Source: a virus
Taxonomy: Duplodnaviria; Heunggongvirae; Uroviricota; Caudoviricetes
Virus record (IMG/VR): IMGVR_UViG_2698536454_000005
Location: 1-5,991 of that record
Length of the DNA stretch: 5,991 bases
Direction: 5' to 3' (one strand)
The position numbers and the translations under genes are program-made. Position 1 is the stretch's first letter. Each line of letters begins with the position of its first letter. The notes below the pieces were generated by a model that was not told where the DNA came from, did not search any database, and saw only the letters and a program-made list of their open reading frames with translations. This document shows, one piece after another, positions 1 to 5,991 of this stretch.

Positions 1-1
1 G

Positions 2-659
<658 letters not shown>

Positions 660-662
660 TCC

Positions 663-995
663 ATGCATCGTATAGACACGAAAACCGCGCAGAAGGATAA
701 GTTCGGCGCGGGTAAGAACGGTTTTACCCGTGGTAACCCCCAGACCGGCACACCTGCCACCGATCTGGATGATGACTACTTTGACATGTTGCAGGAAGAA
801 CTCTGCAGCGTGGTGGAGGCATCCGGTGCCAGCCTGGAGAAGGGGCGGCATGACCAGCTGCTTACCGCGCTTCGTGCGCTGCTGTTAAGCCGCAAGAATC
901 CGTTTGGCGATATCAAATCTGATGGCACGGTGAAAACGGCTCTCGAAAACCTTGGTTTGGGAGAAGATCAGTTCAACACTATTGTTTCAGAATAA
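663..995 (+). CDS. Tail-fibre protein, constant N-terminal part (Sc-like), ending in a 9-codon stub after a crossover-site copy; truncated in this arrangement
   Basis: ATG 663 is preceded by GGAG with 6-nt spacing. The N-terminus [21 protein letters not shown] is what I recall from Mu-like/e14-like fibre N-termini. Codons ENLGLGE (946-966) are encoded by the crossover core that also begins both variable cassettes. After the core the frame runs only DQFNTIVSE then TAA. Confidence 0.75.
940..965 (+). other. Site A: 26-bp invertase crossover site inside the fibre constant-part codons (ctctcgaaaacc tt ggtttgggagaa)
   Basis: Near-palindromic 12+2+12 layout. The right half plus next base is identical to 2510-2522 and to the reverse complement of 5912-5924. 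Central dinucleotide tt at 952-953. Same orientation as site B. Confidence 0.6.
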
Positions 996-1046
996 TCACT
1001 TAACCCCATTTATGTCGGTTGAGGTTATAAGTCACGGAGACCAGAT

Positions 1047-1391
1047 ATGTCCTTAAAGTATGCACATGAAAAATTTCATACTGCAGTACTTACTCTTGCG
1101 GGCCATGGAAGTATTCAAGAACGCTTGATTAATTCGTATGTTTTTAGCCTTGGGCATCTTAAAACAGCCGATGATATTCCAAATGCCTTACAAAGCAGGT
1201 TCGATGAATTATGTAAGGAACTGACTAAGTTTGATGCCACTGGCGATGAGGGGCGAGTTCAAGCAACAGTATCAAAACTTAACGATTTCGAGATCAATAA
1301 ACTGATCGAAGATATTGTCAGTCTTAACGATGATATTTGCATGAAATTGGCTCTGACGGATGAGACTTACCAAGACATACACCAAAGTTAA
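1047..1391 (+). CDS. Hypothetical small acidic protein (114 aa), AT-rich cargo gene of unknown function
   Basis: ATG 1047 preceded by GGAG 1036-1039 with 7-nt spacing. A hand-counted 100-bp sample at 1047-1146 is about 35% GC, against about 55% for 701-800. Hand count gives 19 Asp+Glu versus 11 Lys+Arg. No motif I can assign. Confidence 0.65.
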   Translation: MSLKYAHEKFHTAVLTLAGHGSIQERLINSYVFSLGHLKTADDIPNALQSRFDELCKELTKFDATGDEGRVQATVSKLNDFEINKLIEDIVSLNDDICMKLALTDETYQDIHQS

Positions 1392-1418
1392 TTGATTAAA
1401 TTCAAAAAGTTAACGTTC

Positions 1419-1441
1419 AACCAGCCAGTTTTTGGCTGGTT
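1419..1441. terminator. Putative bidirectional intrinsic terminator between the convergent 114-aa and 70-aa genes
   Basis: Perfect 9-bp stem aaccagcca (1419-1427) / tggctggtt (1433-1441) with a 5-nt loop. T-rich tract follows on the plus strand (1442-1450). On the minus strand it is followed by an A/T-rich tract containing a T5 run (complement of 1403-1407). Confidence 0.5.
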
Positions 1442-1475
1442 TATTGTCTTATAATATTCTTGCTCGAATGATGCA

Positions 1476-1688
1476 CTATTTATGATGTAATCCGGACATC
1501 AGTTCATGGACAAGATTATCTCTTTCATTGTGTTGCAACCGTAAATGCATAGCAAAAAGGTGAGCACTATCCTCATTCCTCTTCAAGCCATGCTGTTCAA
1601 GATACCCGAAAAAACGGCTTCTCTTATCCGCTATTTCCTGAGTCTGACGTGCAACATTTACCAAATTTTCTAGCGTTTTTCTTGGCAT
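1476..1688 (-). CDS. Hypothetical small His-rich protein (70 aa), cargo gene downstream of the invertase on the same strand
   Basis: ATG is the complement of 1686-1688. A perfect AGGAGG Shine-Dalgarno (complement of 1696-1701) lies 7 nt upstream. AT-rich. Seven His, no Cys. No recognisable motif. Confidence 0.65.
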   Translation of the reverse strand: MPRKTLENLVNVARQTQEIADKRSRFFGYLEQHGLKRNEDSAHLFAMHLRLQHNERDNLVHELMSGLHHK

Positions 1689-1886
1689 ACTATTTCCTCC
1701 TGAAATTGTTGTAATTCACTAGGATATTCATTTTAATTTGTATCATTTAGTACCAAAACCGCTATCAATTAACAAAGCCATCGTTGTGGTTTACCTTGCA
1801 GCCGTTTTTTGTCATTGACTCTATGTGAAAATAATGAATCATCATGAGATTGGCTCACACGTTCTTGAATTCGACGAGCTGTGTCT

Positions 1887-2441
1887 TTATTTATCTCCTG
1901 CCGGAAACCTCTGATACAAAGTCGATACGCCAACATCATAGATAATCGCAACTTTCTGGCGCGGAACTCCTGATGCAATTAATCGTCCGGCTTGTGCCCA
2001 TTGTTCTGGTGTAAGTTTGGGACGACGTCCACCAATTCGTCCCTGTGCGCGAGCAGCTTCCAGTCCAGCTTTTGTTCGTTCAACAATCAGTTCTCGTTCC
2101 ATTTCAGCCAGGGCCCCCATCACATGAAAGAAAAAGCGCCCCATTGGGGTACTGGTATCAATTGAATCCGTCAGACTACGAAAGTTGATGCCTCGTTCGC
2201 GCAACTCCTCCACCAGCACGACAAGATGCCGCATACTGCGCCCCAGTCGGTCCAGTTTCCAGACCACCAGCGTATCGCCTGCCGATAATGTCCTGAGCAG
2301 TTTTTTCAGTCCCGGCCTTTCGGACTTTGTACCGCTTATCTTGTCTTCAAAAATCAGCTCGCATCCTGCACAGTTCAGCGCATTACGTTGTAGATCTGTG
2401 TTCTGGTCATTTGTTGACACACGTACATAGCCAATAAGCAT
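1887..2441 (-). CDS. pin: Site-specific serine DNA invertase, Hin/Gin/Cin/Pin family
   Basis: Starting from the MLIGYVRVSTNDQ methionine (complement of 2439-2441) gives 184 aa. Catalytic serine lies in the RVSTNDQ context near the N-terminus. Conserved blocks LVVWKLDRLGRS and GRFFFHVMGALAEMERELI are present, with a C-terminal helix-turn-helix (GVSTLYQRFP). AGGGAG sits 7 nt upstream. The ORF-track start at 2477 adds 12 residues encoded by the inverted repeat and is probably not the real start. Confidence 0.93.
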   Translation of the reverse strand: MLIGYVRVSTNDQNTDLQRNALNCAGCELIFEDKISGTKSERPGLKKLLRTLSAGDTLVVWKLDRLGRSMRHLVVLVEELRERGINFRSLTDSIDTSTPMGRFFFHVMGALAEMERELIVERTKAGLEAARAQGRIGGRRPKLTPEQWAQAGRLIASGVPRQKVAIIYDVGVSTLYQRFPAGDK

Positions 2442-2442
2442 G

Positions 2443-2522
2443 GTAGATCTCCCTGACAAAAGCAGGAATGATGCCATTTGCTCGTTATTTCTGCATTTTC
2501 ATAAACGTTGGTTTGGGAGAAG
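2443..2522. repeat. Left inverted repeat (80 bp) of the invertible segment; contains the invertase RBS and site B
   Basis: 2443-2522 is the exact reverse complement of 5912-5991, compared base by base. Identity ends at 2523/5911. Confidence 0.9.
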
Positions 2523-2962
2523 CGGCAAAACGAAATGTGGGCAACGGGGAAAACCAAATCCCTGATATGTCTTTCTGGACGGTTACTGGTGGCAATGGAA
2601 ATTTTGTGATTCGTCAACCTGACGGGCTAATCATTCAGATGGTTACTGTAAGTATAAGCGGTCCAGTGGCGATGAATGGAATGACTGATAATGCTTATGC
2701 CATTACAGGTTCTAATAAGTCTTATATTGCCACAGCCACATTGCCCTTTGTATTTCCTAATAAGGTGCTGGGCGTTATCCCTCTGGTATCAACAACAGCT
2801 TATGGTGGTGTATCCAGTAATATTACAGGTTCATACGCGACGGCGGTTTGTTCTTTTGCCGCTGTCAGGGGGAATAATACGATTGTGTTCAAAGTCGACA
2901 AACCACTGAATGCAGCCTTTCCTTCAGATACCAGCGTCTCAGCGTTAATCATTGGACGGTAA
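2468..2962 (+). CDS. Tail-fibre C-terminal variable cassette Sv1; the first 18 codons are encoded by the inverted repeat and the cassette is not joined to the constant part in this arrangement
   Basis: The frame is continuous with the GLGE codons of the crossover core and unique sequence starts at 2523. Gly/Thr/Ser/Asn/Val-rich 146-aa tip. Stop TAA 2960-2962 is followed 2 nt later by the ATG of a tail-fibre assembly gene. Confidence 0.65.
   Translation: MMPFARYFCIFINVGLGEAAKRNVGNGENQIPDMSFWTVTGGNGNFVIRQPDGLIIQMVTVSISGPVAMNGMTDNAYAITGSNKSYIATATLPFVFPNKVLGVIPLVSTTAYGGVSSNITGSYATAVCSFAAVRGNNTIVFKVDKPLNAAFPSDTSVSALIIGR
2496..2521 (+). other. Site B: 26-bp crossover site (ttttcataaacg tt ggtttgggagaa)
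   Basis: 12+2+12 layout with central tt at 2508-2509. Resembles hix/gix-type sites as I recall them. Lies at the inner end of the left inverted repeat. Confidence 0.7.
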
Positions 2963-3978
2963 GAATGAACTCAGTATTCTTTTCACCCGCAAGTAAAAGT
3001 TTTTATCTGCAAGAATTGTTTCCAGAATATGAGGATGCGGGAACGCTTCCTGATGATGTTATTGAAATTACCAGAGAAACATATGAGCAATTTCTTGGGC
3101 TGCATCCAGAAGGGAAAGAAATTGGCGCTGACAGTTCAGGACGGCCAATATGGATTAATTCCCCGCCGCCTTCAAAAGAGGATGAGATGCTGGCGGCTGA
3201 AATGAAAAAGATATCTTTGGTTTCAGAAGTCAATACCTACATCAATACCCATCAGTGGCCTGGCAAAGCTGCTATTGGTCGTCTGAAAGGTTACGAGCTG
3301 GAACAATATAATTTATGGCTGGATTATCTGGACGCACTGGAACTGGTTGATACCTCCAGTGCTCCAGATATTGAATGGCCTACGCCTCCGGTAGTTCAGG
3401 CCAGATGACATCCGGCGCGGTGCTGGTATCTGTTGCAGTCACCGCGTCAATGTAATCCAGCACAGCGTTAAGCCGGGTTGTTTCTGCCTGCGTCAGCTTC
3501 CGCCCGGCCTGCAATTTCAGCTGAATCAGACTAATGGAAGCCATAGCAGCATCAATCAGTGACTGGCGCCGTACTTCTGCCGCGTCTACTGCGGCGTTAT
3601 GCTGTGCCTCAGTATCGGTCACCCATTTCTCACCATCCCATTTATCGTATGACGTTAACGGGGCGATAGTGGTTGTATTTTCAGGGTAATCACCCGGAAC
3701 TGTGATTTCTTTTGATTCTCCTGTTTCGGTGCTATAGACGATTTCACCGCGATGGTCTGGCACATATTCCCATGAGTTAAAATCTGCAGAACGGCAAATT
3801 GCATAACCAGCTTTATATGAGCCAGGAGCATCTAAACAGGAACATGCCGGGATACCAACACCCACAGCAAGATATTCAGTTGATGTGGAAATATATTCCC
3901 GTGTTTCACCATCATAATTATAAACGGTAATGTCTCCGGCCTTTGTGGCGATGAGTTCATTATTTAATACAGCTTTAC
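2508..3978. repeat. Tandem direct repeat, copy 1 (1471 bp)
   Basis: Matches 3980-5450 at an offset of 1472. Supported by identical translations of three ORF pairs and by reading the boundary regions and one ~470-nt internal stretch directly. Base 3979 matches neither flank. Confidence 0.85.
2965..3408 (+). CDS. Tail-fibre assembly chaperone (Tfa; Mu U / P2 G family) partnered with Sv1
   Basis: C-terminus DTSSAPDIEWPTPP matches the conserved Tfa C-terminal motif (compare APDVIWPELP in the other Tfa here). Coupled immediately downstream of Sv1. Confidence 0.8.
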   Translation: MNSVFFSPASKSFYLQELFPEYEDAGTLPDDVIEITRETYEQFLGLHPEGKEIGADSSGRPIWINSPPPSKEDEMLAAEMKKISLVSEVNTYINTHQWPGKAAIGRLKGYELEQYNLWLDYLDALELVDTSSAPDIEWPTPPVVQAR

Positions 3979-4000
3979 ATTGGTTTGGGAGAAGCGGCAA
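3380..4000 (-). CDS. Tail-fibre assembly chaperone (Tfa) copy whose native ATG start is replaced by the duplication junction; possibly non-functional
   Basis: Identical to the 4852-5457 product from KAVLNNELIATK onward. The native MIS start is absent and the only in-frame start is TTG at 4000, inside the crossover core. Its 3' end overlaps the convergent Tfa gene by 29 bp (3380-3408). Confidence 0.45.
   Translation of the reverse strand: MPLLPNQCKAVLNNELIATKAGDITVYNYDGETREYISTSTEYLAVGVGIPACSCLDAPGSYKAGYAICRSADFNSWEYVPDHRGEIVYSTETGESKEITVPGDYPENTTTIAPLTSYDKWDGEKWVTDTEAQHNAAVDAAEVRRQSLIDAAMASISLIQLKLQAGRKLTQAETTRLNAVLDYIDAVTATDTSTAPDVIWPELPEA
3968..3993 (+). other. Site C: hybrid junction carrying a crossover core half-site (tacagctttaca tt ggtttgggagaa)
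   Basis: The right half and central tt are identical to sites A and B. The left half is the start region of the Tfa gene and does not resemble a site half. Probably a recombination product junction rather than a functional full site. Confidence 0.5.
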
Positions 4001-4434
4001 AACGAAATGTGGGCAACGGGGAAAACCAAATCCCTGATATGTCTTTCTGGACGGTTACTGGTGGCAATGGAAATTTTGTGATTCGTCAACCTGACGGGCT
4101 AATCATTCAGATGGTTACTGTAAGTATAAGCGGTCCAGTGGCGATGAATGGAATGACTGATAATGCTTATGCCATTACAGGTTCTAATAAGTCTTATATT
4201 GCCACAGCCACATTGCCCTTTGTATTTCCTAATAAGGTGCTGGGCGTTATCCCTCTGGTATCAACAACAGCTTATGGTGGTGTATCCAGTAATATTACAG
4301 GTTCATACGCGACGGCGGTTTGTTCTTTTGCCGCTGTCAGGGGGAATAATACGATTGTGTTCAAAGTCGACAAACCACTGAATGCAGCCTTTCCTTCAGA
4401 TACCAGCGTCTCAGCGTTAATCATTGGACGGTAA
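3985..4434 (+). CDS. Duplicate Sv1 variable cassette with no start codon; expressible only if fused to the constant part at site C
   Basis: Translation identical to Sv1 from GEAAKRNVG onward. The frame is closed upstream by TGA at 3952-3954 and has no ATG. Begins at the crossover core. Confidence 0.5.
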   Translation: MGEAAKRNVGNGENQIPDMSFWTVTGGNGNFVIRQPDGLIIQMVTVSISGPVAMNGMTDNAYAITGSNKSYIATATLPFVFPNKVLGVIPLVSTTAYGGVSSNITGSYATAVCSFAAVRGNNTIVFKVDKPLNAAFPSDTSVSALIIGR

Positions 4435-4436
4435 GA

Positions 4437-4880
4437 ATGAACTCAGTATTCTTTTCACCCGCAAGTAAAAGTTTTTATCTGCAAGAATTGTTTCCAGAAT
4501 ATGAGGATGCGGGAACGCTTCCTGATGATGTTATTGAAATTACCAGAGAAACATATGAGCAATTTCTTGGGCTGCATCCAGAAGGGAAAGAAATTGGCGC
4601 TGACAGTTCAGGACGGCCAATATGGATTAATTCCCCGCCGCCTTCAAAAGAGGATGAGATGCTGGCGGCTGAAATGAAAAAGATATCTTTGGTTTCAGAA
4701 GTCAATACCTACATCAATACCCATCAGTGGCCTGGCAAAGCTGCTATTGGTCGTCTGAAAGGTTACGAGCTGGAACAATATAATTTATGGCTGGATTATC
4801 TGGACGCACTGGAACTGGTTGATACCTCCAGTGCTCCAGATATTGAATGGCCTACGCCTCCGGTAGTTCAGGCCAGATGA
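4437..4880 (+). CDS. Tail-fibre assembly chaperone (Tfa), duplicate of 2965-3408
   Basis: Translation identical to the 2965-3408 product. Confidence 0.75.
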   Translation: MNSVFFSPASKSFYLQELFPEYEDAGTLPDDVIEITRETYEQFLGLHPEGKEIGADSSGRPIWINSPPPSKEDEMLAAEMKKISLVSEVNTYINTHQWPGKAAIGRLKGYELEQYNLWLDYLDALELVDTSSAPDIEWPTPPVVQAR

Positions 4881-5457
4881 CATCCGGCGCGGTGCTGGTA
4901 TCTGTTGCAGTCACCGCGTCAATGTAATCCAGCACAGCGTTAAGCCGGGTTGTTTCTGCCTGCGTCAGCTTCCGCCCGGCCTGCAATTTCAGCTGAATCA
5001 GACTAATGGAAGCCATAGCAGCATCAATCAGTGACTGGCGCCGTACTTCTGCCGCGTCTACTGCGGCGTTATGCTGTGCCTCAGTATCGGTCACCCATTT
5101 CTCACCATCCCATTTATCGTATGACGTTAACGGGGCGATAGTGGTTGTATTTTCAGGGTAATCACCCGGAACTGTGATTTCTTTTGATTCTCCTGTTTCG
5201 GTGCTATAGACGATTTCACCGCGATGGTCTGGCACATATTCCCATGAGTTAAAATCTGCAGAACGGCAAATTGCATAACCAGCTTTATATGAGCCAGGAG
5301 CATCTAAACAGGAACATGCCGGGATACCAACACCCACAGCAAGATATTCAGTTGATGTGGAAATATATTCCCGTGTTTCACCATCATAATTATAAACGGT
5401 AATGTCTCCGGCCTTTGTGGCGATGAGTTCATTATTTAATACAGCTTTACTTATCAT
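4852..5457 (-). CDS. Tail-fibre assembly chaperone (Tfa; TfaE / Mu U' type) partnered with Sv2
   Basis: ATG (complement of 5455-5457) overlaps the Sv2 stop in an ATGA arrangement. C-terminus TSTAPDVIWPELPEA carries the conserved Tfa motif. Confidence 0.85.
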   Translation of the reverse strand: MISKAVLNNELIATKAGDITVYNYDGETREYISTSTEYLAVGVGIPACSCLDAPGSYKAGYAICRSADFNSWEYVPDHRGEIVYSTETGESKEITVPGDYPENTTTIAPLTSYDKWDGEKWVTDTEAQHNAAVDAAEVRRQSLIDAAMASISLIQLKLQAGRKLTQAETTRLNAVLDYIDAVTATDTSTAPDVIWPELPEA

Positions 5458-5966
5458 GCAGCCCTCACAATATAATTAAAGGCGATGTTACGGGAGCGGG
5501 TTTCAGATGCTGTGCGAACTGAGCGAGATGCGTCGAATGTCCAGTTATAAGCGCCATAACCCTCAATAATTTCGGCTTCCTTTAGACCTGTAGATAATAC
5601 TTGCCCATGTTGACTAAATGGCCCTGAACTAAGTACGTCTCTAAAAAGCTGGGTACGCCCAAAAGAACCAACAATATTCTGAATTGCATCATTCTGTGCA
5701 GATAATAAGTTACGACCAGAGTCAATCCCGCGCCCATCATCCCAGCCACGAATAAATTCACCGCGTAAATCTGGTAATTTTAATGTTGGGTAAGCCTTTG
5801 CCAGATTTGGGTACTTTTCAGAAGAAAATACTGCTCCGTTACATTTTAGCCACCCCGTTGGCGGAGTGGCGGAAGGCCACGGAACAGGCACACCAACGGG
5901 TAATGCCGAACCTTCTCCCAAACCAACGTTTATGAAAATGCAGAAATAACGAGCAAATGGCATCAT
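5454..5966 (-). CDS. Tail-fibre C-terminal variable cassette Sv2 (receptor-binding tip of the P2 H / Mu S / Stf type); first 18 codons encoded by the inverted repeat
   Basis: Carries conserved tail-fibre tip motifs: PWPSATPPTGWLKCNGA, YPNLAKAYP, LPDLRGEFIRGWDDGRGID and the C-terminal NIAFNYIVRAA. In frame with GLGE of the crossover core. Confidence 0.85.
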   Translation of the reverse strand: MMPFARYFCIFINVGLGEGSALPVGVPVPWPSATPPTGWLKCNGAVFSSEKYPNLAKAYPTLKLPDLRGEFIRGWDDGRGIDSGRNLLSAQNDAIQNIVGSFGRTQLFRDVLSSGPFSQHGQVLSTGLKEAEIIEGYGAYNWTFDASRSVRTASETRSRNIAFNYIVRAA

Positions 5967-5991
5967 TCCTGCTTTTGTCAGGGAGATCTAC
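5912..5991. repeat. Right inverted repeat (80 bp, cut by the window end)
   Basis: Exact reverse complement of 2443-2522. May extend beyond position 5991. Confidence 0.9.
5913..5938 (+). other. Site D: 26-bp crossover site (ttctcccaaacc aa cgtttatgaaaa), inverted relative to A, B and C
   Basis: Reverse complement of site B, with central aa at 5925-5926. Confidence 0.7.

Follow-up and report, generated by a model that had tools for sequence, protein, structure and literature searches.

[quoted passage not shown] The window, the whole stretch of DNA analysed, is 5,991 nt long. Our analysis suggests that the duplication is probably an assembly or scaffolding artefact of mixed flipped forms rather than a biological duplication, and that it is most likely absent from any single DNA molecule.

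The tail-fibre switch and its crossover sites

This locus carries an ordinary tail-fibre switch, worked by the serine invertase Pin, that lies beside ssrA in the remnant of a defective E. coli prophage; its gene order is IS3-ymfQ-Sc-site-[Sv1 tfa tfaE' Sv2']-site'-pinE. The features of the window are given below; L001 and L002 are related loci that carry the switch in opposite orientations.

1-99: tip of an IS3-family element (ISEc31-like, multicopy), which cuts ymfQ short; the window opens exactly 99 nt inside it
87-659, plus: ymfQ (Mu Gp48-like baseplate gene), part of the prophage remnant (PF10076, E=8.7e-27; annotated in L001 and L002)
663-966, plus: Sc, the constant 5' part of the tail-fibre gene, ending in a crossover site (100% identity to L002 4663-4966, also to L001)
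940-965, plus: crossover site A, CTCTCGAAAACC TT GGTTTGGGAGAA, the 26-bp site as in L001, L002, L004, L007, L009 and L012 (top-3 PWM score)
967: joint j1, an unmatched A between Sc with its site and the 3'-terminal 28 nt of a 343-aa hypothetical gene
968-2442, minus: pin flank in the orientation of the L001 isomer, colinear with L001 4001-5477
968-995, plus: 3' end (last 28 nt) of the 343-aa hypothetical gene
1047-1391, plus: 114-aa ORF
1476-1688, minus: 70-aa ORF
1887-2441, minus: pinE, serine invertase (PF00239 Resolvase, E=1.5e-51; PF02796 HTH_7, E=3.6e-13)
2443-2522: left arm of an 80-nt perfect inverted repeat, pin upstream region plus 15-mer (repeat search)
2496-2521, plus: crossover site B, TTTTCATAAACG TT GGTTTGGGAGAA (site list and PWM)
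2508-3978, plus: repeat copy 1, with the 15-mer, Sv1 (2522-2962), tfa (2965-3408) and a 5'-truncated tfaE (3380-3978, minus) (exact identity run; Pfam Gp53-like_C and Caudo_TAP)
3968-3993, plus: joint J ("site C"), TACAGCTTTACA TT GGTTTGGGAGAA, in which base 3979 is the unmatched A
3980-5450, plus: repeat copy 2, with the 15-mer, Sv1 (3994-4434), tfa (4437-4880) and most of tfaE (4852-5457, minus) (exact run; 100% identical to L002 4952-6422)
5454-5911, minus: Sv2, the alternative tail-fibre C-terminal cassette (Collar PF07484, E=1.3e-15)
5912-5991: right arm of the inverted repeat, made up of site D and 60 nt from upstream of pin (repeat search)
5913-5938, minus: crossover site D, core TT/AA

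The pinE gene was found to be intact; its product has a resolvase catalytic domain at the N-terminus and an HTH at the C-terminus, and the identical protein is named pinE in RefSeq. In such genes a Fis-bound recombinational enhancer usually lies inside the coding sequence. The fibre cassettes are mirror-arranged, as in an invertase switch: Sv1 and tfa are on the plus strand, and Sv2 and the full-length tail-fibre-assembly gene tfaE (201 aa, Pfam Caudo_TAP) are on the minus strand. The segment is bounded by two inverted 26-bp sites with a matching 2-bp core, 2496-2521(+) and 5913-5938(-), and the bounding sites recur in 12 related loci. Sc continues into Sv1 in L002 (744-nt CDS) and into Sv2 in L001 (762-nt CDS), and in the window it is fused to 10 foreign codons (ORF 663-995). 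The hypothetical genes between ssrA and pinE, searched for a defence or other function, gave no Pfam or PADLOC matches.

Our analysis also showed how the window ends. At the left, positions 1-99/100 are matched by other copies of the IS in thousands of genomes and homologues of ymfQ match from 96; an IS3 transposase is annotated beside ymfQ in L001 and L002. At the right, the last 80 nt are an inverted repeat of sequence within the window, which stops 1 nt short of where L002 has the pinE ATG (match to 6963; pinE from 6965). An IS interior and a self-inverted repeat are both typical places for short-read contigs to end. The two ends did not agree on a single k, since the left indicated 99/100 and the right 80/81.

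The repeat and the two joints

A perfect 1.47 kb tandem duplication with one unmatched base at its joint had been reported in the preliminary description of this DNA, and both observations were confirmed. In a period-1472 self-comparison, 2508-3978 and 3980-5450 formed one exact run of 1471 nt with zero mismatches, and the spacing of 1472 was likewise returned by the repeat search of the window. Identity over this length is far beyond chance. TRF was silent on the repeat because the longest period that it covers is 500. The unmatched base, 3979, is A, and its register partners are G (2507) and T (5451). Each copy opens with the 15-mer TTGGTTTGGGAGAAG, which occurs four times in the window and in none of 200 shuffles; the copies of this conserved half-site comprise three direct and one inverted.

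It had also been claimed that the joint leaves a Tfa copy without its ATG and a second Sv1 without a start. This is correct at the level of the genes: in the first copy, tfaE lacks codons 1-2 and its codon 3 is changed from AGT to TGT, and no in-frame ATG lies upstream of the second Sv1 cassette. The functional weight of both is nil; a missing start is the normal state of any silent Sv cassette in Pin-type switches.

A second joint of the same kind, j1, was found at 967. This position is G in every complete genome with the same 3' end, where the matches begin at 965 with one mismatch. Both single-base joints, A967 and A3979, adjoin an edge of the 15-nt repeat, at which the unitigs of a de Bruijn graph of mixed isomers end. 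The sequences that cross the joints are ...GCTTTACATTGGTTTGG... and ...GGGAGAAGATCAGTTC, and also ...AATACAGCTTTACATTGGTTTGGGAG... and ...GGGAGAAGATCAGTTCAAC...

Joint J was absent from 5,426 complete E. coli genomes, phages, plasmids, GTDB genomes, JGI metagenomes and IMG/VR, so that no independent assembly in these collections contains it. Joint j1 was absent from the same 5,426 genomes, GTDB genomes, JGI metagenomes and IMG/VR. An exact-protein look-up of the chimeric ORFs returned zero records.

A mosaic of two isomers and the origin of the joints

Two complete genomes match the locus at about 100% identity, one in each orientation, and the repeated unit is single-copy in both. The unit was single-copy in each of the three best-matching complete genomes and in 10 of the 10 draft loci inspected. 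Except for A967 and A3979, every base of the window is 100% identical to genome CP180607 in one or the other orientation. In-silico inversion of L002 between the cores reproduced L001 exactly, and both orientations occur in nature.

The window holds both the pin-upstream|Sv1 junction of the L001 type and the Sv2|pin-upstream junction of the L002 type, which a molecule with only one pin gene cannot contain together. A toy de Bruijn graph was built from L002 and its in-silico inverted isomer (identical to L001) at K=31, 55, 81 and 99. At all four values the only k-mers of the window missing from this two-isomer graph were those spanning 967 and 3979. The window is thus a walk through the graph that takes mutually exclusive junctions. 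At every K tested, 966 is an exact unitig end and 3980 an exact unitig start. Position 966 is the point at which Sv1 and Sv2 diverge; this is a boundary of sequence information, and it lies 14 nt from where Pin cuts.

We infer that software, and not the cell, made the joints. In an E. coli culture, Pin would flip the tail-fibre segment in some cells, and both inversion isomers would be sequenced together. The assembler or scaffolder may then have threaded one path through the tangled graph, running from ymfQ and Sc to the branch point at 966 and jumping over one filler base into the other isomer, which it would follow for 3,011 nt (968-3978) through the pin flank, site, Sv1, tfa and most of tfaE. 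A second jump over a one-base filler would return the path to the start of the invertible-segment unitig at 3980, from which it would pass through the segment into the pin upstream region, meet its own reverse complement and stop at 5991. The 1,471 nt common to the second and third pieces would in this way be laid down twice and appear as a perfect tandem repeat. The filler A's could be a 1-nt gap character, a miscall at a contig end or the product of a gap-closing step. Positions 968 and 3978 are not branch points in the local two-isomer graph, and for this reason a pure unitig-concatenation model cannot account for the start and end of the middle piece. Several other sources of the filler bases were considered, namely microhomology, A-tailed ligation chimeras, MDA chimeras, insertion with a 15-bp target duplication, circle integration and specific assembler behaviours, and none of them fits both joints.

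Of the two origins proposed in the preliminary description, an artefact of mixed inversion isomers is thus the one that we favour, and recombination at a crossover site proved only half right. It is possible, if doubtful, that joint J was real in the sample, either as a recent tandem duplication of Sv1-tfa-tfaE' or as an unrolled 1,472-bp excised circle; an illegitimate, one-sided event associated with Pin would then have linked the core of site B to the start of tfaE. The half that stands is that the identity starts exactly at the TT crossover core (2508/3980). In addition, 1472 is the distance from the core of site B to the TA at 5452-5453, where a crossover would give the correct length; the hybrid "site C" retains the conserved half-site, through which it ranks 4th of 5966 positions on the PWM; and pinE is intact, with both isomers natural. 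Counting against an artefact, most de Bruijn assemblers would emit such a loop or path only if reads containing the joint were present.

The proposed partner, however, does not behave as a crossover site. The supposed quasi-site at the start of tfaE is unremarkable and not site-like, ranking 2196 of 5966 on the half-site PWM with a right half of -14 bits. A clean Pin crossover there was tried in the registers 5451-2, 5452-3 and 5450-1, and only 5452-3 gave the right length; even this register demands a change of T5451 to A, since a clean exchange predicts T at 3979 where A is observed. A paralogous cassette as donor of the A was rejected, as none of L003-L013 has A at the position equivalent to 5451. 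Wild-type invertases, moreover, work through a Fis/enhancer complex and not by simple collision, and such a complex promotes inversion within one supercoiled molecule rather than deletion or exchange between molecules. The exchange would also pair a TT core with a TA core, and such a mismatch has been shown to block ligation by Hin (PMC4817059). Given the rank of the quasi-site, the unlike cores and the untemplated A3979, joint J is explained neither by site-specific crossover nor by microhomology, and it was seen nowhere else in the collections searched.

The twin joint weighs in the same direction. The novelty at j1 begins at 967, beyond the 26-bp site and outside the core, and the 343-aa gene of L001 has no site at the corresponding place, so that j1 cannot be a product of Pin. 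A real joint J would therefore call for another odd event, unrelated to the first, that fell at the same edge of the repeat and left the same filler base. That both joints are real is improbable: Pin, or breakage at its site, would have made a site-anchored tandem duplication or a 1.47-kb circle, and a second rearrangement would have put pinE inside a larger invertible or deletable unit. If this were so, a two-site system would have become a four-site one, giving a snapshot of how Min-like multi-inversion systems could arise and an in vivo example of an illegitimate by-product that a serine invertase leaves anchored at its site.

A genuine Min-like multi-site system, with A, B, C and D all working as sites, pin enclosed in a larger invertible segment and the repeat as a stable part of the architecture, could draw on the four copies of the half-site and on the tolerance of natural sites for very degenerate outer halves, but it is very improbable, as the units are 100% identical with no distinct cassette, the sites at J and j1 do not recur in the collections searched for each, the inspected complete genomes have the plain two-site arrangement, and Sc ends here in foreign codons.

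Relation to known systems

The switch resembles the P segment and Pin of e14 in its 184-aa serine invertase, its two inverted 26-bp sites with a TT/AA core, its constant Sc joined to either of two mirror-image C-terminal cassettes, each with its own assembly gene, and the occurrence of both orientations in complete genomes. Pin is related to Gin of Mu, Cin of P1 and Hin. Unlike e14, the window carries its switch in a different, IS-truncated prophage remnant next to ssrA, and its cassettes (Sv1 gp53-like_C and Sv2 Collar) form a module common to P2-like, Mu-like and other prophages. The duplicated unit is foreign to the canonical Pin layout. As the underlying Pin tail-fibre switch is textbook, the biological weight of the locus is little.

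The Min multiple-inversion system of plasmid p15B was reportedly described by Sandmeier in 1994, in work to which PMC4134206 refers. More than two crossover sites and several Sv/tfa cassettes, as in Min, would allow many isomers. In p15B, however, distinct cassettes lie between the sites and the arrangement is reproducible, whereas the extra "site" of the window arises where two identical copies meet and occurs in this window alone.

The locus matters mainly for quality control, as invertible prophage segments from mixed populations can give rise to chimeric contigs, false duplications and deposited "plasmids", which can pass for amplified genes or for mobile elements and multi-site switches of a new kind. 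Three deposited 1.92-kb "circular plasmids" (CP148528.1, NZ_CP148539.1 and NZ_CP148540.1) are bogus, each being the interior of the segment studied here. The closest precedent is the EC958 genome of Forde et al. (2014), in which mixed invertase isomers in the culture gave additional or chimeric contigs where prophages carry tail-fibre switches; the authors reported that tail-fibre inversion isomers led to spurious contigs and warned that merging them gives artefactual duplications in phage regions (PMC4134206). The window differs from EC958 in that the isomers are fused in one contig, with two single-base joints and a direct repeat, rather than placed in a separate alternative contig.

The repeated unit and the tail-fibre switch

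Self-comparison of the window at an offset of 1472 gave a sole exact run of 1471 nt, in which 2508-3978 equals 3980-5450, and a repeat search of the window also returned a spacing of 1472. The coordinates of the perfect tandem duplication in the preliminary description were therefore right to the base, and its lone unmatched base at 3979 was confirmed as A, with G2507 and T5451 as register partners. TRF gave no output for this repeat because its maximum period is 500, as against 1472 here.

Genes of the locus (Pfam assignments; the hypothetical genes are those between ssrA and pinE)
87-659: Mu Gp48/YmfQ
1047-1391, plus: 114-aa hypothetical gene
1476-1688, minus: 70-aa hypothetical gene
1887-2441, minus: invertase, resolvase + HTH_7 (pinE)
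2522-2962: Sv1, gp53-like fibre C-terminus
2965-3408: tail-fibre assembly protein
4852-5457, minus: tail-fibre assembly protein
5454-5912, minus: Sv2, Collar-domain fibre C-terminus
3000-4031 of the CP189657 locus: 343-aa hypothetical gene

When searched by megablast in 5,426 complete E. coli genomes, the locus mapped to a prophage remnant adjoining ssrA. The gene order in CP180607 is IS3, ymfQ, Sc+Sv1, tfa, tfaE (minus), Sv2 (minus), pinE and the three hypothetical genes, which have no Pfam or PADLOC match; Sc is the constant 5′ part of the tail-fibre gene, and Sv1 and Sv2 are its alternative C-terminal cassettes. In CP189657 the stretch between both 26-bp crossover sites, CTCTCGAAAACC-TT-GGTTTGGGAGAA and TTTTCATAAACG-TT-GGTTTGGGAGAA, is inverted, so that Sc is joined to Sv2, and inverting CP180607 in silico between the site cores recovered CP189657 exactly. 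The locus is a standard tail-fibre switch of the Pin/Gin/Cin type. The repeated unit is single-copy in both genomes and in all 10 draft loci with the Sv1-tfa-tfa′-Sv2′ module. This invertible module (L003-L012, at about 9984-12000) recurs at 94-99.7% identity in prophages with P2-like, Mu-like and other backbones; the coding half of its crossover sites, GGTTTGGGAGAA, is invariant and the non-coding half very variable.

Composition of the window

With the exception of two bases, the whole window matches one or other orientation of CP180607 at 100% identity, and it falls into three pieces.

Pieces of the window
1-966: piece one; IS tip, ymfQ, Sc, site
967: A, filler base
968-3978: piece two, 3,011 nt, colinear with the CP189657-type isomer
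3979: A, filler base
3980-5991: piece three, arranged as in the CP180607-type isomer

Piece two contains the last 28 nt of the 343-aa gene, two small ORFs, pinE (minus) and the pin upstream region, then site B, Sv1, tfa, and tfaE without its first codons. Piece three contains a 15-mer, Sv1, tfa, tfaE, Sv2, site D and 60 nt of the pin upstream region. The 15-mer, TTGGTTTGGGAGAAG, is the overlap between pieces one and three, which together make the canonical CP180607 sequence (a span of 2,963 bp in two best-matching genomes, H2 and H3). The 1,471 nt common to pieces two and three are the "tandem duplication".

The left end of the window lies exactly 99 nt within an IS3-family element (ISEc31-like) that occurs in multiple copies and has truncated ymfQ; this end looks like a short-read contig end. 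At the other end, 5912-5991 repeats 2443-2522 perfectly in inverted orientation over 80 nt and reaches the last base, so the window holds the junctions of both inversion isomers: pin upstream with Sv1, and Sv2 with pin upstream, each from a different isomer. It stops 1 nt before the place where the pinE ATG follows in CP180607.

Since pieces also meet over one unmatched A at 966-968, the duplication joint has a twin there; in both, the A lies against an edge of the 15-mer. At this second joint (940-995), Sc and the whole crossover site continue in frame through A967 into the last 9 codons of the 343-aa gene, which is located beyond pinE in complete genomes. Neither joint was found in the 5,426 complete E. 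coli genomes, where the query halves match separately, nor by exact-pattern scans of JGI metagenome contigs, GTDB genome contigs and IMG/VR; the duplication joint was also absent from phage and plasmid collections. None of the chimeric ORFs is recorded as a called gene.

Origin of the joints

De Bruijn graphs at K=31, 55, 81 and 99 were made from CP180607 and its inverted isomer. At each K, the only window k-mers missing were those over A967 and A3979, and unitigs ended at 966, 2522 and 5926 and started at 2508/3980 (a further start, at 5912, appeared at K=31 and 55). Thus 966 and 3980, each flanking one of the anomalous joints, are points at which an assembler facing a mixture of isomers can no longer follow a single path. 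The first of them, 14 nt away from where Pin cleaves, stands out only because the Sv1 and Sv2 sequences split there; this makes it informationally rather than biochemically special. Neither 968 nor 3978, on the opposite sides of the joints, is a branch point in the local two-isomer graph.

Of the two origins offered in the preliminary description, a mixed-isomer artefact is favoured by the two-isomer mosaic: assembly or scaffolding of mixed Pin inversion isomers is the best-supported reading and a fairly probable one, and the duplication is probably not real as a feature. That the sample did contain a head-to-tail joint, through a recent duplication or as a 1.47-kb circle, is unlikely but kept in consideration because graph assemblers normally require reads holding the joint; moreover, no explanation accounts for the two filler bases, nor for two of the four breakpoints.

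The other origin, crossover at a site, is disfavoured. The repeats become identical from the TT core onwards, and the TA at 5452-5453 lies one period away from it, so a crossover at that TA would yield the right length. Its putative partner, TACAGCTTTACT-TA-TCATGCAGCCCT, ranked 2196 of 5966 window positions on a PWM derived from 14 natural half-sites; the cores are unequal (TT vs TA), and in Hin a single core mismatch stops ligation in the recombinant configuration (PMC4817059). A T is expected at 3979, where A is present, and the second joint, which falls outside the 26-bp site, cannot have come from a core exchange. Just to the right of that joint, at 969-994, is a weak site-like CAGTTCAACACT-AT-TGTTTCAGAATA (rank 67 of 5966), off the joint position and probably due to chance. 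Microhomology, A-tail ligation, MDA chimeras and circle integration were considered, and none accounts for both joints. A stable multi-site inversion system is essentially excluded.

Probable and reported artefacts at such switches

Among the hits of our plasmid search were three records deposited as "complete circular plasmids", 1,920-1,923 bp long (CP148528.1, NZ_CP148539.1 and NZ_CP148540.1), that consist solely of window 3992-5914, the interior of the invertible segment. Two are from one strain, in opposite orientations, and assembly error is almost certainly the source of all three public records. The underlying switch biology is already known. [quoted passage not shown]
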